A stretch of DNA of 64,000 bases from a virus. The notes below the pieces were generated by a model. The model saw only the letters and a program-made list of their open reading frames with translations. It did not search any database and had not been told where the DNA came from. This document shows, piece after piece, positions 899 to 26,293 of the stretch (positions within the stretch are counted from its first letter, which is position 1; every line of letters starts with the position of its first letter). The DNA is taken from the IMG/VR virus record IMGVR_UViG_3300028802_000007, positions 1 through 64,000 of that record; one strand, 5' to 3'. Position numbers and translations under genes: made by a program.

Positions 899-908
899 GT
901 TGGTCCTT

Positions 909-2270: not shown

Positions 2271-2492
2271 CTACTTCAATCCTCGGAAGTGCGCCGCGAT
2301 GAAGTCCGCACTCGCACTGTTGAGGTGGTCGGCTTCCATCTGACGGTTCGCGGCGGTGATGGCCTGCTCGTAGGTCATCGTGTGGGTCTCAAGGCGACCC
2401 ATGATGGGTGCCAGGTATTCAGGGACGAGGCGGATGCCATCGCGGAACTCGACCTCGATCTTCTGGCCGGGGAACACTAGGCCGTCTTCCAT
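2271..2492 (-). CDS. small hypothetical protein
   Basis: Fills TerL-portal gap; alternative GTG start at 2477 overlaps the TerL stop. Confidence 0.6.
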   Translation of the reverse strand: MEDGLVFPGQKIEVEFRDGIRLVPEYLAPIMGRLETHTMTYEQAITAANRQMEADHLNSASADFIAAHFRGLK

Positions 2493-4003
2493 GACACCTT
2501 CCCCGTCTTGTTCATGGACCCGTAGAAGAACTCGGCGCTGGTCAGGTCCATCGAGTAGCCCAGCGCGTCCACGAAGTCGTCGTGGCCCTTGGGGAACGAG
2601 AGGAGCTCCGTCTCGAAGGCGGAGCCTCGGAGGCTCTTGTGGTGGAGGACCTTGTGGGCCTCGTACTTGGCGGCCACGCCGCGAGCTCGAGTCGTCTTGT
2701 CGCCGTCCGCCTTGCGTCCCTCGATCGGGATGTGCGGGTACTCCTCCATCACGTTCTGGATGATGGTGGACTGGGCCTGCACGCTCTCGACGATGACCAG
2801 ACCGATGTTCGGGAACGCCTTCCAGCCGTCGAGGATGAACTCGACGTGGTGGCTCTCGCGCTTGTCGCGGTAGGCCGACAGGACGTAGAAGAAGCCCCGG
2901 TTGGGACAGCCCTTCTGGCAGACGTCCTCGGCGGTCGTCGCCCGGGCGGTGAAGTCGGCCCGCTCACGGGTTGAGAACGCGAGATCGACGCCCATTCTCA
3001 GGTTGTAGGAATGGCCCTCAGGGAGGGTGTCGAAGTGGGTGAACGGGCCCTTGAAGATGTTGCCCTCGAGGAGGCCGCTGATGTCGTTCTGGTAGGCGCA
3101 ACTGAAGAGGGCTGAGCCCATCTCCTCACGCTCTCGGAGCAGGCGATCCACCGGCCAGTACTCCGGCCAGTAGCTGTGCAGATCGCCCTTGTCGTCGGGC
3201 TGGAGAGCGGACACGACGTGGCTCTCCCAGCCGAAGCCACCCTGGGCTGTCGGGGTGAAGAACTGCTCATACAGGTCGGCCTCCCCCCAGCGGGTGCCGA
3301 TGACGATGACCACCCCGTCGGGGGCCAGGCAGGGCTTGAGCGTCTTCTTGAACCAGACCTCGACCGCCTCGCGCTGATCCACCGTCTGGGTGTTCTCCTC
3401 GTCGAGGATGTCGTCCATCAGGATGATGTCGAACCGCTTGCTGATGATGGCCCCGCCCACGCCGACCGCGAAGCAGGACACGTCCTTGGAGCCGTGCCAC
3501 CGACTGCCACTTCGGAGCCACTCCTTGTCGGTCCACTTCGAGCTCGACGGACCGCAGTCAGGGAAGGTGTCCTTGTGGGCGGCGTTCGCCTCGTAGGTGT
3601 ACTTGATGGCGCGGCTGAAGTCCTTGCCCTGCATGTCGGTGTTGGACACGAGGCCGACCCGCAGATCGGGGTACTTGGCGACCAGCCACGCCAGCAGGAT
3701 CGTGTTGTTCCAGGTCGTCTTGGCTCCGCCGCGAGGCAGCAGCCACACGCCGTGGCTGCGGGCGTAGATGGCCTCGAGGGTCTGGCTCACCATCTTGCGG
3801 TGGTGCTCCGCCGGCTGGTAGCCGAAGACGTACTCGCCATAGGCGAAGACCGCGTCCGGTCCGTCAGTTCGTGCGAGCTCTCTCAACGCGTGGGAGCGGA
3901 GAGCTTGCCACGCTTCCGGCGTCAGCGCCGCGTCCTCGAGAAGCTTCGACAAGGGCCCTGAGGAAGTCTGGGTCGTCGGAGGCGGCAGAGAGGTTGATGC
4001 CAA
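2477..4003 (-). CDS. terL: terminase large subunit
   Basis: Walker A LPRGGAKTT, Walker B DIILMDD, coupling motif GTRW, nuclease GVDLA and HDDFVDAL; start uncertain (overlaps TerS). Confidence 0.93.
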   Translation of the reverse strand: MASTSLPPPTTQTSSGPLSKLLEDAALTPEAWQALRSHALRELARTDGPDAVFAYGEYVFGYQPAEHHRKMVSQTLEAIYARSHGVWLLPRGGAKTTWNNTILLAWLVAKYPDLRVGLVSNTDMQGKDFSRAIKYTYEANAAHKDTFPDCGPSSSKWTDKEWLRSGSRWHGSKDVSCFAVGVGGAIISKRFDIILMDDILDEENTQTVDQREAVEVWFKKTLKPCLAPDGVVIVIGTRWGEADLYEQFFTPTAQGGFGWESHVVSALQPDDKGDLHSYWPEYWPVDRLLREREEMGSALFSCAYQNDISGLLEGNIFKGPFTHFDTLPEGHSYNLRMGVDLAFSTRERADFTARATTAEDVCQKGCPNRGFFYVLSAYRDKRESHHVEFILDGWKAFPNIGLVIVESVQAQSTIIQNVMEEYPHIPIEGRKADGDKTTRARGVAAKYEAHKVLHHKSLRGSAFETELLSFPKGHDDFVDALGYSMDLTSAEFFYGSMNKTGKVSWKTA

Positions 4004-4436
4004 GCGATCGCTCCTCGTTGATGGTGGACGGCTTGCCGAAGAGGACCTGGAGGCGGTCGATCAACTGGGCGACGTCTTGGGGTCGGATGACGATAAGCGG
4101 CTCATCGGCCCACACACCGCCGCGCTCCCGCCGGACGGTGCGCTTGAGGTCTTCGCGCATGCGCCCGATGGCCTCGTCGATGGCGTCGATGGCGTTGTCG
4201 CGGACGCGGGCTTCCTTGGCGATCCGCTTGCCCTCGTCGTCGGCGAGGAGCGAGAGGGCCTTGTTCTGGGAGCGGTTGCGGAACTCCTCGCGCTTCTTGG
4301 CCCAGCCGCGCTTCTTGGACGCCTCCATGATCATGGAGTGCGTGCTCATGCCGACGGAGTCCGCCAGCTCGCGCAGGCCCATGTCGCCCTGGATGTATTC
4401 GAGCTCGAGGGCGTCGTAGTCCCACTTCTTGTTCAA
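3864..4436 (-). CDS. terS: terminase small subunit
   Basis: N-terminal HTH (WDYDALELEYIQGDMGLRELADSVG..KRGW) plus helical body, immediately upstream of TerL. Confidence 0.75.
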   Translation of the reverse strand: MNKKWDYDALELEYIQGDMGLRELADSVGMSTHSMIMEASKKRGWAKKREEFRNRSQNKALSLLADDEGKRIAKEARVRDNAIDAIDEAIGRMREDLKRTVRRERGGVWADEPLIVIRPQDVAQLIDRLQVLFGKPSTINEERSLGINLSAASDDPDFLRALVEASRGRGADAGSVASSPLPRVERARTN

Positions 4437-4768
4437 CGGATCTCCCTGGTCACCACGCCGGACATGCCCGGGATGCTGACCGTGACCTCTGTGATGCGGG
4501 GGTGGGCCAGCAGCAACTGCTCGGTGATCCAGGCGGCAATGCTGTCGAGGCGCTCGGAGCCGCCGTACAGCATCTCCGACAGCGTGTGGAGATGGAGCCC
4601 ACGGGTCACCGTGAACAGGTCGGCGTACAGGGTCAGGCAGGGCCCGGCGAGGTCGGCGACTTCATCGACGGTGACGGTAAAGGTGTGTCCGTGGAGGTGC
4701 GGCCCTTCGCGCTCCACATCGCGGTGGGTGGAGTCGAAGGTGACCGTGGCTCGGGCTGTGGTGATCAA
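4433..4768 (-). CDS. QueD/6-pyruvoyl-tetrahydropterin synthase-like protein (divergent)
   Basis: TTG start 4768 with GGGGGA SD; FDSTH...LHGHTFTVTV Zn motif, IAAWI and VTV in T-fold spacing. Confidence 0.65.
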   Translation of the reverse strand: MITTARATVTFDSTHRDVEREGPHLHGHTFTVTVDEVADLAGPCLTLYADLFTVTRGLHLHTLSEMLYGGSERLDSIAAWITEQLLLAHPRITEVTVSIPGMSGVVTREIR

Positions 4769-4779
4769 AGATCCCCCAG

Positions 4780-4818
4780 AAAAAAGGGACGGACCGACCA
4801 TCACTGGTCGGCCCGTCC
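4780..4818 (-). terminator. intrinsic terminator
   Basis: Minus strand GGACGGGCCGACCA-GUGA-UGGUCGGUCCGUCC followed by CUUUUUU. Confidence 0.8.
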
Positions 4819-4895
4819 ATTCGGGAACCGTGGACTCGCTGCGCCTATCTACTGGAGGTCAACCAAAAGAGTAGGGGCGCGAGGCGGTGAGACCC
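4780..4895 (-). ncRNA. putative small RNA antisense to the shared early-gene RBS motif
   Basis: Extended -10 TGGTACAAC (4911-4903), long interrupted stem-loop with loop UCUUUUGGUUGACCUCCA, then terminator; no credible ORF. Confidence 0.6.
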
Positions 4896-4902
4896 ATATG
4901 AA

Positions 4903-4935
4903 GTTGTACCACGCGCACAGTACAGGGCGCGTGGT
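4903..4935 (-). promoter_or_regulatory. putative extended -10 promoter overlapped by an inverted repeat
   Basis: TG-G-TACAAC; IR ACCACGCGC/GCGCGTGGT (4908-4935) covers the spacer/-35 zone. Confidence 0.4.
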
Positions 4936-4942
4936 CGGTTTG

Positions 4943-6033: not shown

Positions 6034-6035
6034 GG

Positions 6036-11647: not shown

Positions 11648-11693
11648 CAGGGCCGACAGGGCGACCCGCCCCCCGCACTCTGGAGGTCAACCA

Positions 11694-12435: not shown

Positions 12436-12504
12436 CCCTCACCCCTGACCCCCACCCGGGTCAGGTGCGAGTGCCAGACGGACACTCAGACCAAGGAGGT
12501 CAAC
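12436..12504 (+). promoter_or_regulatory. structured intergenic element, copy 1 of 6
   Basis: CCCTCAC, hairpin CCTGACCC/GGGTCAGG, hairpin GAGTGCC..CACTC, GGAGGTCAAC-ATG. Confidence 0.75.
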
Positions 12505-12879
12505 ATGGACAAGGCACAGGCCAAGGTCGTACAGGTGGCAGTGGGCGAGGCCATCAAGGCCGTCTACGCCCAGCACGGCCTGACCGTCACGTCGTCCCGG
12601 GTCACCTACGACGACTCCACCCTCAACCTGACGGTCAAGGCGACCGTCGCCGATCCGGCGGCGCAAGCCAAGACGTGGGACAACTACGCGCCCGTGTTCG
12701 ACCTCCCTGAGGGCGGCGTCGGCAAGGTCATCACCCTCAACCGCAAGGCCTACCGCATCATCGGGCTGGACCTGAACCGTCGGGCCTACCCGGTGCGGGT
12801 CGAGGACCTCGCCACCGGTCGCCCGGTCCTGTTCAAGGCCCCGGCTGTCGCCCGGGCTCTGGCGTCCCAGACCGCCTGA
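12505..12879 (+). CDS. hypothetical early protein
   Basis: 124 aa with strong RBS. Confidence 0.75.
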   Translation: MDKAQAKVVQVAVGEAIKAVYAQHGLTVTSSRVTYDDSTLNLTVKATVADPAAQAKTWDNYAPVFDLPEGGVGKVITLNRKAYRIIGLDLNRRAYPVRVEDLATGRPVLFKAPAVARALASQTA

Positions 12880-12947
12880 CCCTCACCCCAGCCCCTCACC
12901 CGGGGCTGGTGCGAGCGCCACGTCGGCACTCAAGCAAGGAGGTCAAC
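12880..12947 (+). promoter_or_regulatory. structured intergenic element, copy 2 of 6
   Basis: CCCTCAC, CCAGCCCC/GGGGCTGG, GAGCGCC/GGCACTC, GGAGGTCAAC-ATG. Confidence 0.75.
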
Positions 12948-13301
12948 ATGACCGTCAAGGAACTCATCGAGGCGCTGTCGTCCATGGACGAGGACGCCAC
13001 CATCCGCATCGCGGGCCAGCCCTCCTATCCCATGGAGGCGGAGTTCATCGGGCTGGGGGGCCAGGTTTCCGCCGGATCACCCGACGGCGACGACGAGTGC
13101 GCCGACTGCATGGACCGTCGGTCCGACCACGTCGCCCAGTCCTGCACCCTCAAGGACCTCGACGACGACACGCCCTGCCCGTGCGAGGGGTTCGAGGAGC
13201 CCGCCAAGGACGACGAGTCGGGCGTCTGGCTGGTGGTCGGCGACAACATCGGCTACGGCGTCCCCCGCGAGGTCTACGACACCGCCCGCTACGGCTGGTA
13301 G
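12948..13301 (+). CDS. hypothetical early protein
   Basis: MTVKELIEALSSMDEDATIRIAGQPSYP, with Cys-rich insert. Confidence 0.75.
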   Translation: MTVKELIEALSSMDEDATIRIAGQPSYPMEAEFIGLGGQVSAGSPDGDDECADCMDRRSDHVAQSCTLKDLDDDTPCPCEGFEEPAKDDESGVWLVVGDNIGYGVPREVYDTARYGW

Positions 13302-13308
13302 ACCCTGA

Positions 13309-13379
13309 CCCTCACGGGAGCCCCGGTATCCCCGGGGCTCTGGCGAGCGCCAGATGGGCACTCAGGCAAGGAGGTCAAC
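13309..13379 (+). promoter_or_regulatory. structured intergenic element, copy 3 of 6
   Basis: CCCTCAC, GGAGCCCCGG/CCGGGGCTCT, GAGCGCC/GGCACTC, GGAGGTCAAC-ATG. Confidence 0.75.
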
Positions 13380-13727
13380 ATGGCACTGACGAAACAGGAC
13401 CTAGAGCGGGCCGTCGAGGACGAGCGCCGTCTGGGGTCCGTCGGCTACAACCTCGCGTTCGACCACGGCCAGAGGCTTCAGGCCAAGGGTCGCGCCATCG
13501 TCCTGCGCGAGGCCAACCGTCAGGGCTGGTCGTACGACGACCTCGTCCTGTGGGTGGACTCGAAGTACGGTCGCTGGTTCTGGGACAGCCTGTATGGCTG
13601 TTCTGATCCTGACGGCGCGGCTCAGGCCGTGACCCTCGCATGGGTCGCCCCGGGCGAGGGCGACTACGTCTACCAGCCGACCAGCGTCGAGGCCCACGTC
13701 ACGCGGGTCGAGGCCTACCGGCGATGA
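13380..13727 (+). CDS. hypothetical early protein
   Basis: 115 aa with strong RBS. Confidence 0.7.
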   Translation: MALTKQDLERAVEDERRLGSVGYNLAFDHGQRLQAKGRAIVLREANRQGWSYDDLVLWVDSKYGRWFWDSLYGCSDPDGAAQAVTLAWVAPGEGDYVYQPTSVEAHVTRVEAYRR

Positions 13728-14038
13728 CGTACATGCGGCCATGCCGACGGTGCGGCATCGAGTACGACTTCGACCTTGACCGGACCATGAACGGCCCACA
13801 CGCCCACGGCCCTGAGCCTCGAGGCTGGTCACCGGGCGGCATGACCGTCGCCCGGGAGGGCACCGCCCCCGGGACCCGGGTCCGGCTCATCCACCCCCGC
13901 GAGGGCCTGACCGTCGGTCAGGTGTTCACCGTCGGGTCCACCAGCCCGGAGCATCACTCCCAGAATGGTGGCGGCTACACCATCTACACGACGGACGGCC
14001 AGCACCTCTGGTCCGTCTGGCTGGAGGTCGTCGGGTGA
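13724..14038 (+). CDS. hypothetical protein
   Basis: ATGA-coupled; CRRC. Confidence 0.55.
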   Translation: MTYMRPCRRCGIEYDFDLDRTMNGPHAHGPEPRGWSPGGMTVAREGTAPGTRVRLIHPREGLTVGQVFTVGSTSPEHHSQNGGGYTIYTTDGQHLWSVWLEVVG

Positions 14039-14625
14039 AGGTCCTCGTGGTGTGCGAGTACAGCGGGCGCGTCCGCGACGCCTTCAGGGCGAAGGGGCAC
14101 GAGGCCATCTCGTGCGACCTCCTGCCGACTGAGGTCCCCGGGCCTCACATCGTCGGGGACGCACTGGCTGCGATCCGCGACGTTCAGCCCGACCTCCTCA
14201 TCGCTCACCCGCCCTGCACCTACCTCGCCAACAGTGGCGTCCGGTGGCTGTACGGCGGCAAGGGCACGACCATCGACCCGGTCCGCTGGGGCCAGATGGA
14301 GGAGGGTGCCGCGTTCTTCGCCTCCCTCCTCAACGCTGACGTGCCCATGGTCGCGGTCGAGAACCCGGTCATGCACGGCTACGCCCGGGCCATCATCGGG
14401 CGCGGTCAGGATCAGATTGTCCACCCGTGGCAGCACGGCCATGGCGAGCAGAAGGCGACCGGGCTCTGGCTCCGGGGCCTCCCCCTCCTGCGCCCCTCCG
14501 ACATCGTCGAGGGCCGGGAGCAGCGCGTCTGGCGGATGGGTCCGTCAGCCGACCGATGGAAGGAACGCAGCCGCACCTTCAGCGGCATCGCATCGGCCAT
14601 GGCCGACCAGTGGGGTGACCTGTGA
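14035..14625 (+). CDS. phage DNA cytosine methyltransferase-like protein (short type)
   Basis: KVLVVCEYSGRVRDAF, SCDL, DLLIAHPPC (motif IV), VENP (motif VI), RSRTFSGIASAMADQWG. Confidence 0.8.
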   Translation: MKVLVVCEYSGRVRDAFRAKGHEAISCDLLPTEVPGPHIVGDALAAIRDVQPDLLIAHPPCTYLANSGVRWLYGGKGTTIDPVRWGQMEEGAAFFASLLNADVPMVAVENPVMHGYARAIIGRGQDQIVHPWQHGHGEQKATGLWLRGLPLLRPSDIVEGREQRVWRMGPSADRWKERSRTFSGIASAMADQWGDL

Positions 14626-14876
14626 ACGTGACCTGTACGACATGCCGCAAGGGGCCGCACATCCCGTCGGCACCCGACTACCACCTCTACCGGACGGCGT
14701 CCGTCCGTCCGCCTCGCCCAGCCCTGGCCGTCGCCGGCCCGATCGCGACCGGCGATTGCCCGACATGCGCCCGGGGTGGCTTCGCTCCCAGCCATGACGG
14801 CAGCAGCCGCTGCGAGTCAGGCTCCATCGCATCCGGCGGGACCCGGTCGCACTGCTCCTGCGACACCTGCTTCTGA
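14622..14876 (+). CDS. Cys-rich small protein
   Basis: CTTC, CPTC, HCSCDTCF. Confidence 0.65.
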   Translation: MNVTCTTCRKGPHIPSAPDYHLYRTASVRPPRPALAVAGPIATGDCPTCARGGFAPSHDGSSRCESGSIASGGTRSHCSCDTCF

Positions 14877-14948
14877 CCCTCACCCCTGCCCCTCCATCCG
14901 GGGGCAAGGGCGAGTGCCAGATAGGTACTCAACCATGGAGGTCAACCC
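14877..14948 (+). promoter_or_regulatory. structured intergenic element, copy 4 of 6
   Basis: CCCTCAC, TGCCCC/GGGGCA, GAGTGCC/GGTACTC, TGGAGGTCAACCC-ATG. Confidence 0.75.
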
Positions 14949-15191
14949 ATGACACCGCTCGAACTGGCAACCCGACTGGGCCAGAGCCCAGACCTCGACA
15001 ACCGCATCACGGGCGTCGCCATCATCCTGCGCGGCCTGACCGACGACGACGGCGACCGTCAGGGCTGGCCCATGACTCCCGCCGTTGCGATCCGCGCCGC
15101 GAAGTACATCGGCGTCGAGCCCACCCCGGAACTGGTCGCGGCGGTCCTTGAGTTCGCCCCGTCCCTCCCCGACTTCTACCTCAACCGATGA
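14949..15191 (+). CDS. hypothetical early protein
   Basis: 80 aa with strong RBS. Confidence 0.65.
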   Translation: MTPLELATRLGQSPDLDNRITGVAIILRGLTDDDGDRQGWPMTPAVAIRAAKYIGVEPTPELVAAVLEFAPSLPDFYLNR

Positions 15192-15382
15192 CCGTCCAGC
15201 ATCACGTCACCGCCAACGCCCGGGCGGCGATGGAGAACGACGGCGTCGAGGTTCTGATCCTGACGGCGGAGCAGCGCCGCGACCTCGTCCGCGCCCTGAC
15301 CATCGCCGTTGACACTGAGCTCGAGGCGACCGACCGGTGGGTCGCCCTCATCAACCTCATCCAAACTGGAGCTCCACTTTGA
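15188..15382 (+). CDS. hypothetical protein
   Basis: ATGA-coupled, 64 aa. Confidence 0.55.
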   Translation: MTVQHHVTANARAAMENDGVEVLILTAEQRRDLVRALTIAVDTELEATDRWVALINLIQTGAPL

Positions 15383-15467
15383 GCCTCGCCGACAAGCTGA
15401 GGACCCTCCGCGACGTGACCTTCGTGGTCCTGTGCGTGATCCTGTTCCTCGCCATCGCGAGCCAGCC

Positions 15468-15869
15468 ATGACCGACTTCGAGGACTGCTGGCCGTTCCCC
15501 TGCCGTGACTACCACGCCACCTCAGCTCATCAGGAGGACCCGTGCCTTTGCCGGTGCCATCGGCCAGCGAACGACTACATCGGCCAGGGTGCGGATCAGG
15601 CCACGACGCCTCCACCGGAGGGACATGTACCTGGGCTTGACACGCTGATGGCGAGCCTTCAGACTGACGACATGAGGTCAACCACCGGGCTCCCCCACGA
15701 CTTCGGTCAGGTCTGCGATTGCATCGACTGCGTCGGCTGTGATCACAAGCACGTCGAGCCCGATGACGACGGCCTGTTCCTTCACTTCAACCGGTGCGCC
15801 GACTGCGACCAAGTCGTGGTCCTCACCGCCCCGGACGAAGACGGTCAATCCTTCTGGGAGGTCATGTAG
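15468..15869 (+). CDS. Cys-rich hypothetical protein
   Basis: ATG 15468; several CxC/CxxC pairs. Confidence 0.55.
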   Translation: MTDFEDCWPFPCRDYHATSAHQEDPCLCRCHRPANDYIGQGADQATTPPPEGHVPGLDTLMASLQTDDMRSTTGLPHDFGQVCDCIDCVGCDHKHVEPDDDGLFLHFNRCADCDQVVVLTAPDEDGQSFWEVM

Positions 15870-16208
15870 ATGGGCATCATCATCGAAGGGCACGTCGTGG
15901 TCAGCACCAAGACCCTGACCGGACACAAGGGCCACCACCTGACGGTCGAGGACGACTCGTTCGGGCCTCGCCTGTGGTGCGTCGAGGACGCCGTGGTCGT
16001 CGCGTCGGTCCCTCAGCCCCGGACCGATCTGCCATGCGGCTGCATCGACGTGGCGAGCCACAACGAGGACCTCGCCGTCCAACTCGACCTCCGCAAGAAG
16101 TTCCGCATCCCCAAGTCCACCTGCGTCGGCTGCTATCTGGGCGACGACGGCATCAGCATCCACTCCTGCGCCATCCACCCTGAGAGGTACTGGCCGGAAG
16201 CTTCCTGA
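15870..16208 (+). CDS. hypothetical protein
   Basis: RBS GGAGGTCA; Cys/His rich. Confidence 0.6.
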   Translation: MGIIIEGHVVVSTKTLTGHKGHHLTVEDDSFGPRLWCVEDAVVVASVPQPRTDLPCGCIDVASHNEDLAVQLDLRKKFRIPKSTCVGCYLGDDGISIHSCAIHPERYWPEAS

Positions 16209-16277
16209 CCCTCACCCCAGCCGCCGACCAGCGGCTGGTGCGAGCGCCAGATTGGCACTCATCAACGGAGGTCAGCC
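16209..16277 (+). promoter_or_regulatory. structured intergenic element, copy 5 of 6
   Basis: CCCTCAC, CCAGCCGC/GCGGCTGG, GAGCGCC/GGCACTC, GGAGGTCAGCC-ATG. Confidence 0.75.
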
Positions 16278-16844
16278 ATGACCAAGACCATCGAGTACGA
16301 GGTCCCCGCCTTCAAGGGGTCGCCTCAACTCGCCCACTACGGCGAGTGGGACGGGAACACCCTGCTCCACGCCATCCTCAACGGCGACGGACCGGCGGTC
16401 ACGGAGTTCCTGGCCGGGTTCGTCGCGGATCGCAACACGGAGTTCGACGCGGTCGAGTTGCGGTACGCCATCGTCGCCCGGGCCGTCGAGGCGACGACCG
16501 ACCTCGCCAAGGGCGTCGAGACGACCGGGTTCAAGGCCTTCGCCAATCCCGATCCCAAGGCCAAGTACCGCAAGCCCAAGGTCACCCACGAGGGCGAGGG
16601 CTGCGAGGCCAACTACTGCGACCTCGCCGCCAAGTACCGCCTCCCGGCTCCGCCGGAGGGCTTCGACGGGACCGTCCTCACGCTGGCATGCCAGAAGCAC
16701 GCGGTCGAGGCCATCGACCGTCAGGCCTACTTCGTCGCCCGGGGCGGCAACAGCAGGTACGTCTACCTGACGTCCGACGGACACAGGCAGATCAAGGAGG
16801 CCGCTCGCGACGCGCTCCTCGAAGCCGTCAAGGCCGCCGTCTAG
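16278..16844 (+). CDS. hypothetical early protein
   Basis: 188 aa with strong RBS. Confidence 0.75.
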   Translation: MTKTIEYEVPAFKGSPQLAHYGEWDGNTLLHAILNGDGPAVTEFLAGFVADRNTEFDAVELRYAIVARAVEATTDLAKGVETTGFKAFANPDPKAKYRKPKVTHEGEGCEANYCDLAAKYRLPAPPEGFDGTVLTLACQKHAVEAIDRQAYFVARGGNSRYVYLTSDGHRQIKEAARDALLEAVKAAV

Positions 16845-16915
16845 CCCTCACGCCAGCCCCTGACGGGGGCTGGAGCGAGTGCCACACGGGTGCTCAAGCA
16901 AACAGGAGGTCAGCC
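16845..16915 (+). promoter_or_regulatory. structured intergenic element, copy 6 of 6
   Basis: CCCTCAC, CCAGCCCC/GGGGCTGG, GAGTGCC/GGTGCTC, GGAGGTCAGCC-ATG. Confidence 0.75.
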
Positions 16916-17251
16916 ATGACCCAGAGCGTAGTCAACGTCGATGACCCCAGCGCGGCTGACGGCATCGCCGACATCCGCCCGGATCAGGTTCGGAGCGCCT
17001 ACGACGGACGCGCCAACCGGTGCGCGTGCGGCTGCTCAGGCAACTACTACGGCCCCGGCTACCCGGAGTTCAGCATCGCCACGACCGACCGGATGGTCGG
17101 CCTCATCCTCAAGCGCATGCAGCGCCGCGCCGCCAAGGCCAAGGCCGGCGAGGTCGAGCCACTGTGGACCTTCACCTACTCCGACGGGTCCCGCATGTTC
17201 GCCTACCAGACCGCCTCGCGTCTGATCCGCATCGAGACGGTGGCCCTGTGA
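16916..17251 (+). CDS. hypothetical early protein
   Basis: ATG 16916; SAYDGRANRCACGCSGNYY. Confidence 0.7.
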   Translation: MTQSVVNVDDPSAADGIADIRPDQVRSAYDGRANRCACGCSGNYYGPGYPEFSIATTDRMVGLILKRMQRRAAKAKAGEVEPLWTFTYSDGSRMFAYQTASRLIRIETVAL

Positions 17252-17574
17252 CCGCCGAAGACGAGGCGTGGGAGCGCGAGTGGAACGAGTCCATCGCCCG
17301 GATCAGGGCTGACTTCCCGTCGGGCTGGAGCATCACCGGGTACAAGGGCCACAACACCCACGACGGCGTGGCCTGGGTCGCGACCCTCCGCCTCGACGGC
17401 AAGTCGGTCGCCTTCCTTGAGGACTCAGGTGTCGGTGGCGGAGTCTGGTCCCAGTTCCGCGATCGCGCCGACCGCGAGCTGTTCGACAAGGCCGTCGCCG
17501 ACGTCCTGCCCGACGAGAAGACCGAACCGGAGCAGATGGTCTTCGAGGCCCTCCTCCAGCGGTCAGGCAAGTGA
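17248..17574 (+). CDS. hypothetical protein
   Basis: GTGA-coupled; WVATLRLDGKSVAFLEDSGVGG. Confidence 0.65.
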   Translation: MTAEDEAWEREWNESIARIRADFPSGWSITGYKGHNTHDGVAWVATLRLDGKSVAFLEDSGVGGGVWSQFRDRADRELFDKAVADVLPDEKTEPEQMVFEALLQRSGK

Positions 17575-17743
17575 TGCGGCAGCACCACGCTGGATATCCC
17601 GTCCCGTACTTCGAGCAGGTGCGGGGACGGGACGGCCTGTGGTGGTGGGCCAAGTGCCCGGTCTGCGGGCGCGTGATCCTGAACAAGGACGGCTTCGGAC
17701 CGGCCAACCACTGGCGTCGGATGCAGCGCCGGGAGGAGGCCCA

Positions 17744-18436
17744 GTGAAGGTCCTCGACCTGTACTCCGGTCTGGGCGGCTGGTCGCAGCCAGCCCTCGAC
17801 GAGGGCCACGACGTGGTCCGGGTGGAGTACGACCCTCGCCTCGCGAAGGAGGTCCCGTCGTCGGTTCAGGCCGACATCACGACCCTCCGACCAGCCGACC
17901 TCCTCGACATGATGGGCGGCAAGCCCGACCTGATCCTCGCCTCGCCTCCCTGTGAGGCGTGGTCGGTCATGGTCATCAGCCGCAACTGGTTCCCCGACTA
18001 CACGCCCAAGTCGGATCGGGCTGCGGCTGCGGTCGAGATGGTCAAGCACACCCTGTACCTGATCCACGCCATCGACCCGACGTTCTGGGTCATGGAGAAC
18101 CCTCGCGGCATGATGCGGAAGCACCCGGTCGTCGCCGGACTGGAGCGCCGGTCGGTCACCTACTGCCACTACGGTGAGCAGCGGATGAAGCCGACCGACC
18201 TGTGGTCCGACCGCTGGGCTCCCAGCCTGGTCCTCGCACCGACGTGCAAGAACGGCGACCCCTGTCACGTTCGAGCGCCTCGCGGGTCGATGACCGGCAC
18301 CCAAGGCATGAAGGGCGACCGCAACGGCTACTGGACGAAGTCCCTCATCCCCTACCCGCTGGCACGCGACGTCACCGACGCCGCAGCGGCGGATCTCGAG
18401 GCGGGCCAAGTCGGCTCCAACCTCACGCTCTGGTAA
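17744..18436 (+). CDS. DNA cytosine-C5 methyltransferase
   Basis: GTG 17744 (GGAGGAGG SD); motif I VLDLYSGLGG, IV ASPPC, VI MENP. Confidence 0.85.
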   Translation: MKVLDLYSGLGGWSQPALDEGHDVVRVEYDPRLAKEVPSSVQADITTLRPADLLDMMGGKPDLILASPPCEAWSVMVISRNWFPDYTPKSDRAAAAVEMVKHTLYLIHAIDPTFWVMENPRGMMRKHPVVAGLERRSVTYCHYGEQRMKPTDLWSDRWAPSLVLAPTCKNGDPCHVRAPRGSMTGTQGMKGDRNGYWTKSLIPYPLARDVTDAAAADLEAGQVGSNLTLW

Positions 18437-18447
18437 GGAGGTCAGCC

Positions 18448-18687
18448 ATGCAGTTACACGACTCAGCCAAGGCGGAGAACATCCGCGACATCGCCCGGGA
18501 GCTCCTCGCGAGAGCCGACGAGCTCGACGGCACCATGCCGTGCGAGTGCGGGCACCTCCGCCAGAACCACGACCCGGCGGGTTGGAACGCGGGCTGGTGC
18601 AGCGGAGCCCAGACGACTCGCCGGCCCAGCGGCAGGATCATCGCCGCCGACGGCGACTGCAAGTGCGAGGAGTTCAAGGCATGGTGA
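18448..18687 (+). CDS. Cys-rich hypothetical protein
   Basis: RBS AAGGAGGTCAGCC-ATG; CECGH...CKCEEF. Confidence 0.65.
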   Translation: MQLHDSAKAENIRDIARELLARADELDGTMPCECGHLRQNHDPAGWNAGWCSGAQTTRRPSGRIIAADGDCKCEEFKAW

Positions 18688-18929
18688 CCAAGCTGGTCGG
18701 GAACTGGCGGCGACGCCGGAACACCAAGACCGACACCCACCTCTACTCAGGCAGCGGGCATCACCCGTTCGACCAGCGCCCGATCTGCGGCAAGGCCATC
18801 CGCTACATGACCACCGAACCCATCAAGCCGTGGACCGGCTCACCCCGATCGCGATCCGGCGCGAACGCCGCCCTCCCCTGCACGGAGTGCCTCATCAACG
18901 CCATCGGTCAACGGGACTACTCGAAGTGA
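18681..18929 (+). CDS. hypothetical protein
   Basis: ATG 18681 with GAGGAG SD; ICG..CTEC. Confidence 0.55.
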   Translation: MVTKLVGNWRRRRNTKTDTHLYSGSGHHPFDQRPICGKAIRYMTTEPIKPWTGSPRSRSGANAALPCTECLINAIGQRDYSK

Positions 18930-19064
18930 GCGACGAGGAGGACCTGTGCGCCCGGTGCGGCCACAGCTCTGAGGATCACGGGGGCGGACCCGGCGAGGGC
19001 GAGTACCCGGACCTCCCATGCGACTGCGGCTGTCCCCGCTGGACGGAGGAGGCCGACACCTGAC

Positions 19065-19093
19065 TTGCAATCCACGGGCCCAGGCCCGATACT
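19065..19093 (+). promoter_or_regulatory. putative sigma70-type promoter
   Basis: TTGCAA-17 nt-GATACT in intergenic gap. Confidence 0.5.
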
Positions 19094-19113
19094 CAACACC
19101 GGAGGTCAACCGA

Positions 19114-19389
19114 ATGGACGAGAAGCCCGACCCGACACCACCCAAGCGGTTCTGGAGGGTCACGTTCTGGACACCCGACGGGACAGAGCGCCGTCGCTAC
19201 ATCCGCTGCCCGTACCTCGAGCCCTCGAGTGACTCGCTCGTCAACGTGACGGCGCGTCTGGGCGAACTGGTGTGGACCGGCGTCATCACCAGCTACCGGC
19301 TCAGCCCGGTGCCATCGGCCCGCGTGGCCGCCGTCCGCAATCGCTCAGTGCGATGGAGCGAGGTCGAAGCCTCCCTCCTCGCCGCCTAG
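19114..19389 (+). CDS. hypothetical protein
   Basis: RBS GGAGGTCAACCGA-ATG. Confidence 0.65.
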   Translation: MDEKPDPTPPKRFWRVTFWTPDGTERRRYIRCPYLEPSSDSLVNVTARLGELVWTGVITSYRLSPVPSARVAAVRNRSVRWSEVEASLLAA

Positions 19390-19400
19390 AGGACCATGAC

Positions 19401-19541
19401 ATGCTCATCATCCTGTTCATCACCGGCATCCTCATGTGGGTCATCGGCTCACGTCTGGAGAAGCGCCAGATCGAGGAGCGCGACCGCGAGCTCGACGACT
19501 GGCTCCACCGCCGCAACCGACTGCCGAAGAAGCCTCGATGA
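19401..19541 (+). CDS. small membrane protein
   Basis: N-terminal hydrophobic helix, charged tail. Confidence 0.5.
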   Translation: MLIILFITGILMWVIGSRLEKRQIEERDRELDDWLHRRNRLPKKPR

Positions 19542-19936
19542 AGAGGTCCTACGCGGCCATGGCCGACGAACTGGGACTGGAGTTCTGTGGTGGCGTCCGC
19601 AAGACCGGCCACTACTGCACCCTCGATCACAGCCGTTGGGGCGCGTCCGAACCGGGGCGCGTCCACATGGCCGACGTGCGAGTCACGAAGGCGGGCCTGG
19701 CTCGCTTCCTTGGCCTCGCCGCGATCGCACTTGATCCCAGCCTCAACGACGAGGTGCCGTGGCGGAGGGTCTACCTCCGCACCGTGCGCTCGCGTTATCT
19801 GGCCCAGCAACTGCACGTCCGCGTGCCCGGGCGAGAGCACTACGACTTCGACCGTTCGTTCGTCCTCGCGAGCGTCGCATCCCTCCCGAACAGCGAGCCT
19901 CTTCGGAAGCAAGCGTTCGACTGGGCGCGGCGCTGA
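19538..19936 (+). CDS. hypothetical protein
   Basis: ATGA-coupled, 132 aa. Confidence 0.6.
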   Translation: MKRSYAAMADELGLEFCGGVRKTGHYCTLDHSRWGASEPGRVHMADVRVTKAGLARFLGLAAIALDPSLNDEVPWRRVYLRTVRSRYLAQQLHVRVPGREHYDFDRSFVLASVASLPNSEPLRKQAFDWARR

Positions 19937-19952
19937 TGGGGAGGTGTAACTG

Positions 19953-21356
19953 GTGCGGACCAACGACATGCTCCTGCCCCAGACCGGCCAGCGGGTGCGG
20001 GTGTTCGTGCCACGAGTGTTGCAGCCCGTGCGACTGCGACAACTGGATGTTCGAGGACGCTCGACCTACGTCTGGTGGAACCGACTTGATCTCTGCGTCA
20101 TCCCCTTCAAGAGGAAGGCACACGACGAGTGGCCTATCCAGCACGCCATCGACATCGTCCACGGGGGCGGCTTCGATGTCGCCGATCTCGACGACATCAC
20201 CCTTGGCACCCCATCCGTGGGGCGGCTGAAACAGCAACCCTGGCCCGGGTTCCTCCGCGATGGAGTCCGTGTACCGGTCGAGGAGGAGGACCTATGGCAA
20301 ACCATGACGGGGGCGCAGTACTTCCTGTACCGCGTGTTTGGCGTTGCACCAGATGCTGGGAGGTGGGAACCCGACCAAGTTTCATCATCCTCGACGGGAC
20401 CTACGGGTCCCAGCCCTGCCGCAGCATTCGCTGTGGTGGAGAGAAGCGGATCTTCCACGAAGAGGAGTTCAACGATGACATCAGCACTGAACACACACGA
20501 GTACGTCGCCCCGCACAACAACCCTGAGGTGGCGGCGATCATGGCGGAGAAGGGCGTGGGCCGGAAGCGTGCCTACACCATCCTCCGACAGACCAAGGCC
20601 AAGGCCTTCACCGCTGAGGTGCCCCAGACACAACGGACACAGGTCCTCGCCTCACTGGTGAACCACGCTGGATCGAGCAAGAACGCCAAGGAGCTCCTCG
20701 ACCAGCTTCACGACGACGGCATGAAGATCGACATGCACGACACGGTCAAGACGCTGTGGTCACTTCAGAAGAACCGCTTCGTCTCGTTCCGTGAACGCGG
20801 CAACCCGCCCGGTCTGTACGCCATCAAGGTGACCGACCAGGGACAGGCTGCCTACGCCGACATGCGTGAGCGGCTGGCGGATCAGGAGGTGGACACCTTC
20901 CTCGTGGCTCAGTCCTACCGTCGCCCTGCCGTCGTCGAGGCGGCCATCGCGGCGGAGGCCGAAGCGTCGGTCGCCCTCGACCACGATCCGAAGATGGAGA
21001 CGCAGTCGAGCCTGGATTGGCCGGTCAAGACCAAGGCGGAACGGACCGCCGAAGCCCTAGCACTCAACGGCGAGGTCGTCGTCGAGGACATCCTCCCCGG
21101 CACGCCGGAGTGGGCCGCCTCAGAGGTCGCCCTCGAAGAGCAGCGCCGGTCGGAGTACGGCTTCGACGTGAAGGAGTTCCCGCTCATCTGCGCGATCCGC
21201 GACCGCGCCCGGAAGGAGGCCGTCCTGACGCAGGCGGCGCGGCTCCTCGAGGAAGCCGGCGAGGACGACATCGCCCTCACCGTCATGGGTCGGACCGAGT
21301 ACACCGACCTCGAGCTCGAAGTGAAGACGATGCTCCACAGCATCGGGGAGGTCTAG
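19953..21356 (+). CDS. hypothetical protein with winged-helix-like region; probable internal start at 20475
   Basis: 467-aa ORF; GAGGAG SD before ATG 20475; VKTLWSLQKNRFV...IKVTDQG wHTH-like pattern. Confidence 0.55.
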   Translation: MRTNDMLLPQTGQRVRVFVPRVLQPVRLRQLDVRGRSTYVWWNRLDLCVIPFKRKAHDEWPIQHAIDIVHGGGFDVADLDDITLGTPSVGRLKQQPWPGFLRDGVRVPVEEEDLWQTMTGAQYFLYRVFGVAPDAGRWEPDQVSSSSTGPTGPSPAAAFAVVERSGSSTKRSSTMTSALNTHEYVAPHNNPEVAAIMAEKGVGRKRAYTILRQTKAKAFTAEVPQTQRTQVLASLVNHAGSSKNAKELLDQLHDDGMKIDMHDTVKTLWSLQKNRFVSFRERGNPPGLYAIKVTDQGQAAYADMRERLADQEVDTFLVAQSYRRPAVVEAAIAAEAEASVALDHDPKMETQSSLDWPVKTKAERTAEALALNGEVVVEDILPGTPEWAASEVALEEQRRSEYGFDVKEFPLICAIRDRARKEAVLTQAARLLEEAGEDDIALTVMGRTEYTDLELEVKTMLHSIGEV

Positions 21357-21641
21357 ATGACAGTCACCCTGAAGATCGAGATCACGTCGCCTCTGACGGA
21401 CGAGGACCAGGACCTGATGGCTGGCCTCGCCCTGATGACCGTCGCGATCGCGAACCGTCAGCAGTTCAACGCACAGGCCGACGCTGAGGCGGCGGCTGAG
21501 GCCGAGCCTCAGATCTGCGGCACCTTGGAGTACGTCTCCGAGCCGTCGGGCGACGAGGCCACTGGCCGCGTCTGCATCAGCACTGAGGGTCACGGTGGGC
21601 GGCACAAGTTCCGTCCCACCATCCCGATGGGCATGAACTGA
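21357..21641 (+). CDS. hypothetical protein
   Basis: 94 aa, GGGGAGG SD. Confidence 0.6.
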   Translation: MTVTLKIEITSPLTDEDQDLMAGLALMTVAIANRQQFNAQADAEAAAEAEPQICGTLEYVSEPSGDEATGRVCISTEGHGGRHKFRPTIPMGMN

Positions 21642-21919
21642 TGCCCCAGCCCGCTGAGGGCATGCCCCAGACGGAGGTCGTCCTCCGTCTGCGGGCAGCC
21701 ATCGACACTGCCATCAGGTTCCCCAACCCCAACAACGTGGAGTCGGCCCTCGCCATCACCCGCCTGTACCCGGTGGCGATGCGGTCCACCCACCTTCGCC
21801 ACAACCTGGGTCAGGCCCGCTGGGACTGGCTCACCGACCATGGCTACTACGCCGCCCTCGATCCGTCGTCGGAGGACGACCGGGTGCAGGGCACCATCAC
21901 CCCGGACTACACCGGATGA
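21641..21919 (+). CDS. hypothetical protein
   Basis: TGATG-coupled, 92 aa. Confidence 0.6.
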   Translation: MPQPAEGMPQTEVVLRLRAAIDTAIRFPNPNNVESALAITRLYPVAMRSTHLRHNLGQARWDWLTDHGYYAALDPSSEDDRVQGTITPDYTG

Positions 21920-22004
21920 GCGATGACCTGGCCGCCTTCATCATCGGGGTGGTGATTGGCTGGGCCATCGCCATCACCGCCCTGACGATTGGCTTCCGGC
22001 GACG

Positions 22005-22214
22005 ATGAGCTACCACGAAACCGGGGTGGACGAGGTCCCCCGCTACAGGGCTGCCATCTGGGGGAGGGCGGCCTGCGACCGGTGGGAGGACCACGAGTGG
22101 ATCAGGTTCATCCACGTCTCCCACCCGGGCTACACGTTCTTCGTCCTGTGTCGCCACTGCGGGCGGACGCCGCTGGAGGCGCTCGATGCGCTGCCGTTCG
22201 TCGTCCCGTCGTGA
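22005..22214 (+). CDS. hypothetical protein
   Basis: 69 aa, CRHC. Confidence 0.55.
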   Translation: MSYHETGVDEVPRYRAAIWGRAACDRWEDHEWIRFIHVSHPGYTFFVLCRHCGRTPLEALDALPFVVPS

Positions 22215-22235
22215 CATACAGGTGGCACAGCCGGG

Positions 22236-22961
22236 GTGGAGCATGACGGAGTGAGACCCGTCGTCTACTCCGCATCCTCGGTCAACGCCTACCTGGACTG
22301 CCACCTCCAGTGGTGGTTCACCTACGTCTTGGGCGAGGAAGGCGTCCAGAGCGAGCCGATGCGCGTCGGGATCGAGCTTCACGACGCCGTCGAGCGGCTC
22401 CTCCGAAACCGCGACGACTTCCAAGCGTACTGGCAGGCCGAGACGAGGGATGCCCATCTTGGCGCTCTCGTCAGTGTCTTCGTCGCCGATGTCCTGCCGA
22501 CCTATCGCAACCCGGTCTGGGTCGAGAAGGAGTTCCAGATCGAGGTCAACGGCATCCCGTACAGCGGCATCATCGACTCGCTCGACGAGCAGGACGTGCC
22601 GTGGGGCTTCGAGGACATCCTGCGGGATCTGAAGTCCACCGGGAGCCGGCCCCGGCCCGGGAAGTACACCTTCAACATGCGCGGCTACTGGATGGGGGCC
22701 CGTGACCTCGGTCGCGAACCGGCGGGCATCCAGCTCGACTACATCGTCCGAACCAAGACGCCCTACTACTGGCCGGAGGTCCAGCCTATCCCTGACGACG
22801 ACGACCTCGCCGCCTGGGCCCACACCCTCGAGCTCGTGGCGAACGGCGTCGAGCGAGCCGACTACCGGGCGACCGGGCTGGGGTCCCGCGCCTGTACGAC
22901 CTGTCCCTACGCCGCGATGTGCGGTCCATACCAGAGGTTCAAGGAGGTCACCGATGCCTGA
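22236..22961 (+). CDS. PD-(D/E)XK exonuclease (RecB/Cas4-like recombination nuclease)
   Basis: YSASSVNAYLDC, GIELHDAVE, VEKEF, GIID, RDLKS, C-terminal CTTCPYAAMC. Confidence 0.85.
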   Translation: MEHDGVRPVVYSASSVNAYLDCHLQWWFTYVLGEEGVQSEPMRVGIELHDAVERLLRNRDDFQAYWQAETRDAHLGALVSVFVADVLPTYRNPVWVEKEFQIEVNGIPYSGIIDSLDEQDVPWGFEDILRDLKSTGSRPRPGKYTFNMRGYWMGARDLGREPAGIQLDYIVRTKTPYYWPEVQPIPDDDDLAAWAHTLELVANGVERADYRATGLGSRACTTCPYAAMCGPYQRFKEVTDA

Positions 22962-23775
22962 GGCCAAGACGCAGTCCCTCGCCGCCAAGCTGGCGGAGAT
23001 CATGGGCCAGATGAAGCACGTCAAGAAGGAGGGCTTCAACAAGGCCCAGAACTACAAGTTCGTCCGCGAGACGGACGTCGCCGAGATGGCGTCGGAGCTC
23101 CTCGCGGCCAAGGGCATCTGGGTCCACCAGACGCTCATCGCGGAGGACATGGAGCCCCTGTACACGACCAACTCGGGGGCCCAGATGTGGCTGACCAAGG
23201 TCCAGATCGCGTTCAAGTTCATCGACGGCGCGACCCTCGAGGAGACCCTCCCGCAGACCTTCAGCGGGCACGGTGCCGACACGGGCGACAAGGGCATCTA
23301 CAAGGCCATGACCGGCGCTGAGAAGTACTTCCTGATGAAGTCCTTCCTGATCTCGACCGGTGACGACCCTGAGGCCGACGAGAAGGTGGACAAGGCCGCC
23401 GACGCTGCCGGTGCCGCAACCGCTCCCCGGGTGGTGCGCGGATCGCAGTCCGGCGTCCAGCGCGGAGGCCGCTCCGACGCTGCCACAGCCGCTCAGGTCA
23501 ACGAGGTGGCCCGCTTGGTCAAGGAGTTGAACCTGACTGCCGAGACGGCCCTGCCCATCATCCAGGCCGTTCTGGGCGAGATCCCGGCGGATAAGCAGAA
23601 CATGCGCGACTTCCTCGGATCGAAGAAGTCGGCTGAGGTCGGCAAGCTCATCGAGGCGCTCATGGAGTTCAAGCCCGTCGAGAAGGCGGTCGCGGGCGGC
23701 GACCAAGCGGATCTCGAGGCTCGCGAAGGTCTGGACCTCCGCGACGAGCCCCCGGCGGCCATGGCGGTCGTCTAG
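22954..23775 (+). CDS. ERF-family single-strand annealing recombinase
   Basis: ATG 22954; GFNKAQNYKF, GADTGDKGIYKAMTGAEKYFLMKSFLISTGDDPE; follows the exonuclease. Confidence 0.85.
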   Translation: MPEAKTQSLAAKLAEIMGQMKHVKKEGFNKAQNYKFVRETDVAEMASELLAAKGIWVHQTLIAEDMEPLYTTNSGAQMWLTKVQIAFKFIDGATLEETLPQTFSGHGADTGDKGIYKAMTGAEKYFLMKSFLISTGDDPEADEKVDKAADAAGAATAPRVVRGSQSGVQRGGRSDAATAAQVNEVARLVKELNLTAETALPIIQAVLGEIPADKQNMRDFLGSKKSAEVGKLIEALMEFKPVEKAVAGGDQADLEAREGLDLRDEPPAAMAVV

Positions 23776-23871
23776 ACTTACGGGCCGTCCCTAACGGGTC
23801 GGCATCGGTGACGCGGACCGGATGTCTGACAGCATCCGGTCCCCGCCGCCCTTACTGTCAGGAGGGCTGGT

Positions 23872-24783
23872 TTGTACGATCCCGTCGAGGTGGCGACCTT
23901 CTACGTCGCCATGTTCCCGGCACGAGACGACGTGTACAGCGTCTGGACGCCGGAGTTGCAGGGCTGGCGACCCGTTCGAGAACCGCTCACGCCTCAGATC
24001 ATCCTCGCTGGCCTGACCAAGGCCGGTCCCGCCATCAGCGGCTACATGATCTCCCCGGACTCCTTCACGCACTCATTGGCGATCGACTTCGACACCCCCG
24101 ACGGACTCGAGCAGGGCTTCGCCGTGGCGGCGGCCATGGGCGCAGCGGGCCTCCCGGCCTACGTCGAGACGAGCCGTCGAGGCTCCCATCTGTGGCTGAC
24201 CCTCGATGGTCAGGTGAGCGCGAAAGTGGCCCGCCGAGCCCTGCGGGCGTTTCTCGCCACCGCCCTCGCGGACCCTGAGGATGTTCACATCGAGATCAGG
24301 CCAGGGTCCGACACCATCGCCCCGGGGGGCTTGGGGCATGCACTACGATTGCCGTTCATGCCGCACCCCAAGACCGGTGTCACGCCCCAGTTCATGGACG
24401 CATCCGGCACCGTCATGGGACCCACCATCGCTGCCGCCCTCCTCGACATCAAGTGGGGCGAAGCGAGCATCATTACCGACTGGTCGAAGCGTTGGTCCCC
24501 GGTCACGACCCGGATCAGCAAGGCCTACGCCGACCCCAAGGACTTCGGTCCAGATGAGTACGAGAACGCGTCCGCCTCGCAGATCCTCCGCGAGCTATGG
24601 GGCGCGGACCGGGCAGTCCCCGGGCGCAGCATCCGGTGCCCTGCCCATGACGACAAGGTCGCTTCCCTCAGCATCCTCCGCGACGATCGAAGGGTCATCT
24701 GCAAGAGCCCATCGTGCCCCCTCAACAACGGGGACCACGGACGAGGCACCTTCGAGCTCACCCGTCTCGCCATCCATGTCTGA
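23872..24783 (+). CDS. AEP-type primase with C-terminal Zn-finger
   Basis: AIDFD, ETSRRGSHLW, LRLPFMPHPKTG; C-terminal CPAHDD...CKSPSC. Confidence 0.8.
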   Translation: MYDPVEVATFYVAMFPARDDVYSVWTPELQGWRPVREPLTPQIILAGLTKAGPAISGYMISPDSFTHSLAIDFDTPDGLEQGFAVAAAMGAAGLPAYVETSRRGSHLWLTLDGQVSAKVARRALRAFLATALADPEDVHIEIRPGSDTIAPGGLGHALRLPFMPHPKTGVTPQFMDASGTVMGPTIAAALLDIKWGEASIITDWSKRWSPVTTRISKAYADPKDFGPDEYENASASQILRELWGADRAVPGRSIRCPAHDDKVASLSILRDDRRVICKSPSCPLNNGDHGRGTFELTRLAIHV

Positions 24784-26131: not shown

Positions 26132-26133
26132 CC

Positions 26134-26277: not shown

Positions 26278-26293
26278 GTTTGGCGGGTGCCCT

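Follow-up and report, generated by a model that had tools for sequence, protein, structure and literature searches.

A predicted phage late-operon leader RNA with a hairpin loop complementary to the ribosome-binding-site word of early genes

The window analyzed here is the first 64 kb (64,000 nucleotides) of the IMG/VR virus record IMGVR_UViG_3300028802_000007, which is 130,935 bases in full. Our subject is a noncoding unit of ∼116 nt on its minus strand (4780..4895), comprising a 5′ GGG, a long hairpin, a CCC-GAAU linker, a terminator hairpin, and a U-run, with a hairpin loop complementary to a word that precedes many early genes. The unit lies directly before the first late gene (4433..4777, minus strand; ∼111 amino acids [aa]), which has a Shine-Dalgarno (SD) sequence GGGGGA at 4777-4772 and a putative TTG start codon at 4768, and for which no protein family was matched. 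TerS (3864-4436; phrog_1206 at 3.1e-07), TerL (2477-4003; Terminase_6C at 0.0015, below the Pfam cut-off, with TerL relatives found), and the portal gene (909-2270; Phage_portal at 1.1e-30) follow on the same strand. Because TerS and TerL (2477..4436) mark it, this is the packaging and late operon, and the unit sits at its head as a first-pass annotation of the window had claimed.

Leftward-transcribed genes extend from ∼11.5 kb to position 1 and continue through the genome end down to ∼36 kb, and this block contains TerS, TerL, portal, and very large structural proteins. The rightward genes span 11.5 to ∼36 kb and include those for a cytosine methylase, a PD-(D/E)XK nuclease, an ERF recombinase, and an AAA_25 protein, with the DNA-metabolism genes located in the early block. 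Self-comparison shows that the record consists of two related, colinear phage genomes arranged head to tail and ∼70 to 86% identical: genome A (∼1-74.9 kb) and genome B (∼75.3 kb to the record end), the latter cut at a point matching 56.4 kb of A. The junction, near 74.9-75.3 kb, is outside the window, and the two-genome record is probably an assembly chimera. Since two colinear genomes are joined, a natural relative is available within the record itself.

Immediately upstream of the unit is a conserved promoter-like box (TGTAC..GTGGTACAAC..CATAT; 4896..4924, minus strand) that includes the extended −10-like element noticed in the first pass (TGGTACAAC at 4911-4903, last position C), and the GGG at 4895 is the putative start site. 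The box is kept in an alignment of 30 relatives (..TGTAGGCTTCGTGGTACAACTGCATA across relatives and TGTACTGTGCGCGTGGTACAAC..CATAT in the window) and is present in a single copy in both A and B. Outgroup phages have TTGTTC..TGATAGAGT at the equivalent place, which is a good extended −10 promoter, and it is for this reason that we refer to the window-clade box as a putative promoter. The unit ends in an intrinsic terminator (4780..4818, minus strand) with a 14-bp stem (GGACGGGCCGACCA/UGGUCGGUCCGUCC), a GUGA loop, and a T-run at 4785-4780; its hairpin (4818-4787) is the strongest among 13 terminator-like sites in 1-13000, and the base of its stem, GGACGGG/CCCGUC, is common to a wider phage group. 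The first late gene has its SD and start a few bases past the U-run and begins ∼3 nt beyond the T-run, with no space for a promoter. With nothing between it and the terminator, the late genes presumably can be transcribed only by read-through.

The 142-nt stretch has a folding energy of −61.6 kcal/mol (z = −3.68), and none of 200 shuffles folds equally well. The leader contains no tRNA or tmRNA, there are no Rfam 15 matches in the window at the gathering threshold, and an Rfam 15 scan of 4700-5000 at E values up to 10 gave chance-level matches alone, with 6C not matched; the earlier description of a folded, noncoding unit of this size thus holds. The long hairpin (4827..4888, minus strand) has an ACCG..CGGU outer stem, inner stems of variable sequence, and an apical stem-loop at its tip (4852..4866, minus strand), in which UUGG/CCAG closes the 7-nt loop UUGACCU (4862-4856); the 11-mer GGUUGACCUCC is at 4864-4854. 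The order, 5′ to 3′, is the box, GGG, the long hairpin with lineage-variable arms, an apical stem of 4 to 5 pairs, the UUGACCU loop, CCC paired to the 5′ GGG, a GAAY linker, the terminator (conserved at its base and variable at its top), and the U-run. The long stem proposed in the first pass is borne out by covariation in 36 copies, but the open 18-nt loop closed by CUAC/GUAG is not, and gives way to the covarying 4- to 5-bp apical stem with its 7-nt loop. The difference between A and B is compensatory in both registers, but the wider set of relatives supports the apical stem over CUAC/GUAG as the closing stem. A pairing of the 5′ GGGUC with the GACCU of the loop, suggested by RNAalifold, was also rejected: GGG/CCC is 97% paired instead, and six relatives begin with GGGA.

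The loop is the reverse complement of a word present at the ribosome-binding sites (RBSs) of early genes. With one mismatch or fewer, GGAGGTCAACC has 14 matches in the window against 2.08 expected, and 0 of 100 shuffles reach 14. Genome A contains 11 exact copies of GGAGGTCAAC, ten of which are in sense and 0 to 5 nt before ATG or GTG (nine early genes and one late gene), and the sole reversed copy, at 4854-4863, is the one inside the hairpin. The best candidate target is CTGGAGGTCAACCA at 11680..11693 (plus strand), directly before the GTG of the first early-right open reading frame (ORF), which is a 14/14 complement of UGGUUGACCUCCAG; CTGGAGGTCAACCA is found both at 4852-4865 and at 11680-11693. 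The other candidate targets with the exact word are early/middle-right genes within 12495..28421 (plus strand; GGAGGTCAAC at 12495, 12938, 13370, 14937, 19101, and 28412) and early-left genes (minus strand; 8995-9004 and 10447-10456, each directly before ATG). Variant words, also 0 to 5 nt before ATG or GTG on the plus strand, are GGAGGTCAGC at 16267, 16905, and 18437 and GGAGGTCACC at 22943. Loop matches of 10 to 14 nt are therefore present at nine early start regions of genome A, with four more having one change; the full-length match, the shorter ones, the GGAGGTCAGC variants, and the uniqueness of the reversed copy had all been listed in the first pass, and all stand. The late start regions have ordinary SDs without the extension, with one exception. 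We note that a sigma-70-like promoter (TTGACA-18-GACAAT; 11618-11647, plus strand) lies just upstream of the first early-right ORF, and that repeats of ∼78 nt ending in the RBS word are located between early genes (12429-12507, 12873-12950, 13304-13382, and 16204-16283).

Matches between the loop and SD/start regions are likewise found in genome B and in three relatives, G001 (a complete 77-kb genome with terminal repeats, whose TerL is 72% identical), G002, and G003. No 10-mer is more frequent than GGAGGTCAAC (or its strand complement) in these four genomes: it ranks first alone in B, G001, and G002 and shares first place in G003. The spacing from the word to the start codon is variable (0 to 8 nt across relatives), and because it varies, it is the word itself that is conserved and not merely the SD-to-ATG distance.

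We gathered relatives from 65 loci via TerL (51 to 93% identity), with more from DNA patterns, and a covariance model built from four close copies finds the full-length element in 48 of 74 sources searched. At the TerL-anchored loci with the distance measured, it is ∼0.85 to 1.2 kb upstream of TerL and on the TerL strand. In the set of 36 distinct copies, standard pairs occupy 91.5% of pair cells, compared with 75.2% in column shuffles (0/500 reach the observed value), a margin that is still large given that the alignment was fitted to the covariance model and so favors the structure; sliding the partners by one to three columns gives 35 to 49%. Both sides have changed in 26 of the 39 pairs overall and in 18 of the 22 in helices 2 to 4, and the terminator (helix 5) is 98.8% paired, with 8 of its 14 pairs changed on both sides. 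Single-sequence folds, which are independent of the alignment, give the same architecture including the 7-nt loop. G-U pairs are common (e.g., UG in 20 copies at columns 45/77), and because they are frequent, the folded strand is the late-gene strand.

The variation of the stems is set against an invariant tip. The apical stem is UUGG/CCAG in the window and CUGG/CCGG, UUGG/CCGA, or UUGG/CCAA elsewhere, and TGACCTCC is identical in 35 of the 36 copies, GGTTGACCTCC in 32, with three carrying GGCCTGACCTCC. While the stems vary, TGACCTCC is invariant in 30/30 aligned copies whose mean column identity is 62%. The leader, for which the comparative support is strong, constitutes a structured RNA family that is new and absent from Rfam 15.

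The family belongs to a clade known from metagenomes only; among isolated phages there is no DNA match to the window phage, and the best TerL identity is 29%. A scan of genome contigs gave 69 pattern matches, of which one passes the covariance model (L210:6790-6900). This contig of 76.6 kb is assigned to a metagenome-assembled genome labeled Thermotogae, but its size and the 67% G+C around the element suggest a phage genome binned by mistake, and hence it provides no host information. No leader of this kind was found in the distant TerL relatives (L041, L047, L058-L066, and G005). The phage of L054 (TerL 68% identical) has a simple hairpin at 1171-1270 with a 17-nt CCUCC-rich loop, CUUCCUCCACCUCCUCC, equivalent to several anti-SD cores in a row, on a contig too short to include early genes. 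A wider phage set has the terminator base CCCGAAYGGACGGG..CCCGUC directly before the first late gene and no CCUCC loop, either with other hairpins (L126:7372-7589, L130:9227-9442, L137, L141, L142, and L147) or with a short leader (L067:3791-3895). The terminator-leader module is thus older and more widespread than the antisense hairpin.

The loop and the word occur together. Records with the loop have 11 (A), 13 (B), 12 (G001), 9 (G002), and 7 (G003) exact copies of the word, and two are present in G004, a loop-bearing fragment that is 19% complete; the six records without it (G005 to G010) have 0, 1, 1, 0, 0, and 0 copies. Five of these six (G006 to G010) share the terminator-leader module with other hairpins, and G005 is distant. 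When the reverse-complement 9-mers of each leader are compared with its own genome, the matches concentrate at the loop in A, B, G001, G002, and G003, and in four of these five genomes this is the sole peak; G006 to G008 have no comparable peak. This joint occurrence reflects shared ancestry and not independent events, and it supports the link between loop and word without amounting to proof. In genome A, another peak covers the hairpin's 5′ arm (4878-4891), and the reverse complement of the arm (GGTCTCACCGCC) matches recurrent tandem-repeat words of a 2,455-aa ORF at 60-65 kb. It is probably a chance match because it is absent in B.

Energy calculations agree in part with this complementarity. 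The 7-nt loop has an opening energy of 0.0 kcal/mol and is fully open in the ensemble; opening of the 11-mer takes 5.9 kcal/mol. Interaction energies corrected for accessibility are −7 to −13.5 kcal/mol at seven called early start regions with GGAGGTCAAC or GGAGGTCAGC. Energies are lower at early than at late start regions (medians −0.8 versus +4.0 kcal/mol; Mann-Whitney P = 0.0065); early targets are undercounted in this and the other early-versus-late energy tests, as the ORF caller missed motif-bearing genes (e.g., 11694, 10447, 16915, 18447, and 19111).

A parallel is provided by the Cluster K mycobacteriophages, which have 13-bp start-associated sequences (SAS/ESAS) whose role is not known (Pope et al. 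2011, PMC3203893), and four K1 phages have a single reverse SAS that is unlinked to a gene start (PMC3203893; the reverse sites are listed in its Figure S3). We find that Adephagia has 16 forward SAS and one reverse, and that a long hairpin (z = −6.2) in the gap between genes 92 and 93 has this sole reverse SAS as its 10-nt loop (L115:8661-8711, corresponding to 58,661-58,711 of the Adephagia record). Late transcription appears to initiate in this gap, as indicated by RNA sequencing (RNAseq; PMC11373665). The hairpin stems covary among Adephagia, Niklas, SgtBeansprout, and Curiosium, and among nine sampled Cluster K phages, the loop is intact in four, degenerate in three, and absent in two. 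In both the window and Cluster K systems, the words are asymmetric, contain an SD core, and are longer than pairing with 16S rRNA needs; they are located a few bases before the starts of nonstructural genes, with a longer repeated element ahead of some copies, and some genomes have a single reversed copy, which in Adephagia is the hairpin loop of the late-transcript leader. They differ in that the Cluster K word is GGGATAGGAGCCC and that of the window GGAGGTCAACC, the phages are unrelated (there is no similarity between the TerL proteins of Adephagia and the window phage; E = 1.5), the Adephagia leader lacks an obvious terminator, and the Cluster K motif persists although the loop is degenerate or absent in five of the nine phages. 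Judged by these sequences, the window system resembles the Cluster K SAS without being a member. Relatives that keep the motif and lack the loop, which the first-pass annotation had regarded as telling against its proposal, are not seen among the six loop-less relatives of the window phage (0 to 1 copies), but some Cluster K phages do retain their motif when the loop is degenerate or missing. The portions of the Cluster K SAS papers covered here (PMC3203893 and PMC11373665) contain no mention that we found of an antisense hairpin.

The best reading of these observations, to which we give roughly an even chance of being correct, is that the leader of the late operon is also an anti-RBS RNA acting in trans. 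The unit 4895-4780 (minus strand) would be the terminated leader of a single late operon encoding packaging and structural functions, with the late genes expressed by read-through and thus predicted to need antitermination, and the trans actor would be either the short terminated product or the same hairpin within longer transcripts. The accessible UUGACCU loop would nucleate on AGGUCAA inside the extended SD GGAGGUCAACC of early and middle mRNAs, and pairing in vivo would extend to 11 to 14 bp as the 4-bp apical stem opens. With the SD and spacer covered, 30S subunits could not bind, and early-gene translation would drop; late genes would be spared by their ordinary SDs, which lack the UCAACC extension. 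Pairing between RNAs at the early RBSs is the simplest account because the invariant tip of a covarying hairpin mirrors the commonest genomic word, and repression is the predicted sign of the effect because the pairing covers the SD and spacer. The genes are likely targets rather than sensors because the word is retained at many genes. Because the terminator-leader module predates the antisense hairpin, it is most likely that late-operon control and a role in trans are united in this element.

Several observations weigh against this interpretation. The transcript, its ends, and its timing are predicted from sequence alone, as is its abundance; the −10-like hexamer ends in C and not the usual T, and a −35 box is not conserved. 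The hairpin could also arise early, as the 3′ end of early-left transcripts using the same terminator, rather than only at a switch to late transcription. One late gene (67968-68267, ∼68.3 kb) also has the motif. The loop is invariant in the main clade, leaving no loop-motif covariation to assess there, and the bases flanking the 11-mer do not track between the small RNA and its targets in A, G001, and G002, as judged by eye. In a lineage with a variant loop (L025, L029, and L039; CCUGACCU), nearby genes have GGAGGCCAGCGAATG three times, and this is not a clean complement of CCUGACCU. At a cut-off of −8 kcal/mol, 6/39 early and 1/34 late start regions qualify, which is not significant (Fisher P = 0.11), plain duplex energies with a 34-nt segment fail to distinguish early genes from late ones (P = 0.10), and nested cofolding, a model that cannot represent pairing from within a hairpin loop, pairs the loop with 3/39 early and 1/34 late start regions. 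The loop is degenerate in the Cluster K phages Fefferhead and Phrank, which retain 11 and 12 exact SAS (∼20 each with up to three mismatches), and is missing from Yuna and Pixie. Because the Cluster K motif stays when the loop is degenerate or missing, such motifs do not need a perfect antisense partner.

It is possible, though we consider it unlikely, that the unit is solely a late-operon leader controlled by antitermination in the manner of lambda pR′/tR′, with the apical hairpin binding a protein or RNA polymerase and having no role in trans. The single promoter-like box per genome, the strong terminator abutting the first late gene, and the older and wider module (CCCGAAYGGACGGG..CCCGUC) with its other hairpins or short leader are all in accord with this. 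Such a role leaves two things unaccounted for: the exact complementarity between the 11 most conserved bases and the commonest word of the same genomes, and the shared gain and loss of loop and motif. Moreover, no antiterminator or sigma family was found among the 30 window proteins scanned (27 via Pfam, with seven of those and three others via PHROGs), a scan that many small ORFs fell outside. A leader function of this type is compatible with anti-RBS action in trans, as a second role of the same element.

The direction of control could also be reversed, with abundant early mRNAs pairing with the loop of the nascent leader and altering its read-through or stability or how the first late gene is translated, such that the leader senses early expression and times the late operon. 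The complementarity and position fit this equally, and the Adephagia hairpin is within a long 5′ leader with no obvious T-run terminator. However, a single target suffices for sensing, and the presence of the extended word at 7 to 13 genes per genome argues that each gene benefits as a target. Nor did any alternative pairing of the hairpin arms with the terminator emerge as conserved when the folds and the alignment were inspected, and we regard this reversed arrangement as improbable.

There is little likelihood that the word is instead a double-stranded DNA site, with a phage regulator binding GGAGGTCAACC, as at the L5 stoperators, and the leader copy serving as an additional operator. The motif does recur close to gene starts as an asymmetric word. 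DNA-binding proteins were considered for the extended repeats of Cluster K (PMC3203893). However, all copies that precede genes, other than that of the leader, are in sense, at SD distance, and contain a canonical GGAGG, and no repressor was identified for the motif. The leader copy is positioned exactly at the hairpin tip, and covarying stems that use G-U pairs are a feature of an RNA and not of an operator. Least probable of all is that the CCUCC of the loop acts in cis and, when transcription reads through, masks the SD of the first late gene. Relatives do have GGAGG-type SDs at their first late genes, 60 to 80 nt downstream, but pairing is 5 bp at most, the conserved GGUUGA has no partner at these variable sites, and the stable terminator hairpin intervenes.

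The first-pass statement that no example has been described needs qualifying, as phage antisense RNAs and SD-covering RNAs with C-rich loops are known, and the Cluster K SAS are a close, if unexplained, analogue. The lambda late leader, with pR′, 6S RNA, tR′, and Q antitermination, is arranged like the window unit as judged by sequence: there is only one late promoter, the leader is short and terminated, and the terminator is followed immediately by a very long late operon. No Q-like protein was found among the 30 proteins scanned, however. We know of no trans-acting role for the lambda 6S leader, whereas the hairpin loop of the window unit matches a regulon-wide motif. C-rich-loop small RNAs of Gram-positive bacteria (the UCCC loops of Staphylococcus aureus RNAIII and Rsa RNAs, and mycobacterial 6C) pair with SDs and similarly present a C-rich loop on a stable hairpin to the G-rich RBSs of several mRNAs, with no known chaperone. 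These are host RNAs with short degenerate seeds, whereas the window RNA is phage encoded and matches, perfectly over 11 nt, a word that selection appears to have kept in the targets. T4 RegA (a repressor) and RegB (a nuclease) also shut off many early mRNAs posttranscriptionally by recognizing ribosome-binding regions, but they are proteins and not RNAs. The c4 RNA of phages P1 and P7 is a phage small RNA that base-pairs with phage mRNA made elsewhere and blocks downstream genes; it acts in lysogenic immunity on one target operon and is cut from its target's own transcript. It is named as an antisense RNA in PMC8198154. The window RNA, in contrast, heads the late operon and has ∼10 or more separate candidate target genes through the shared RBS word. 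The window leader would thus act like c4 and the SD-covering small RNAs, is placed like the lambda leader, and has a logic like that of SAS, and it is a member of none of these groups.

Should the pairing occur as described, a single small RNA would govern ∼10 or more phage genes defined only by an extended RBS word, and the control would be physically tied to the start of late transcription, forming a compact timing device of which we found no description in the literature searched. We suggest only tentatively, and with more doubt than confidence, that phages of high-GC bacteria have repeatedly used antisense-loop late leaders as an RNA device to shift translation from early to late genes, with independent origins in the uncultured soil clade of the window phage (GGAGGTCAACC) and in K1 phages (GGGATAGGAGCCC). 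If so, this would explain the purpose of the SAS, at least in K1 phages, a question that has been open since 2011. Adephagia is tractable, as it grows on Mycobacterium smegmatis, can be engineered, and has RNAseq data, which makes the old SAS puzzle testable at the bench. The short RNA and the RBS word might also provide a portable tool for switching sets of genes.

The late block of genome A also includes three very large ORFs, at 60537-64000 and beyond (∼2,455 aa), 37720-43953 (∼2,077 aa), and 44975-51415 (∼2,146 aa). The first and second of these (∼2,455 and ∼2,077 aa) have extensive internal tandem repeats.

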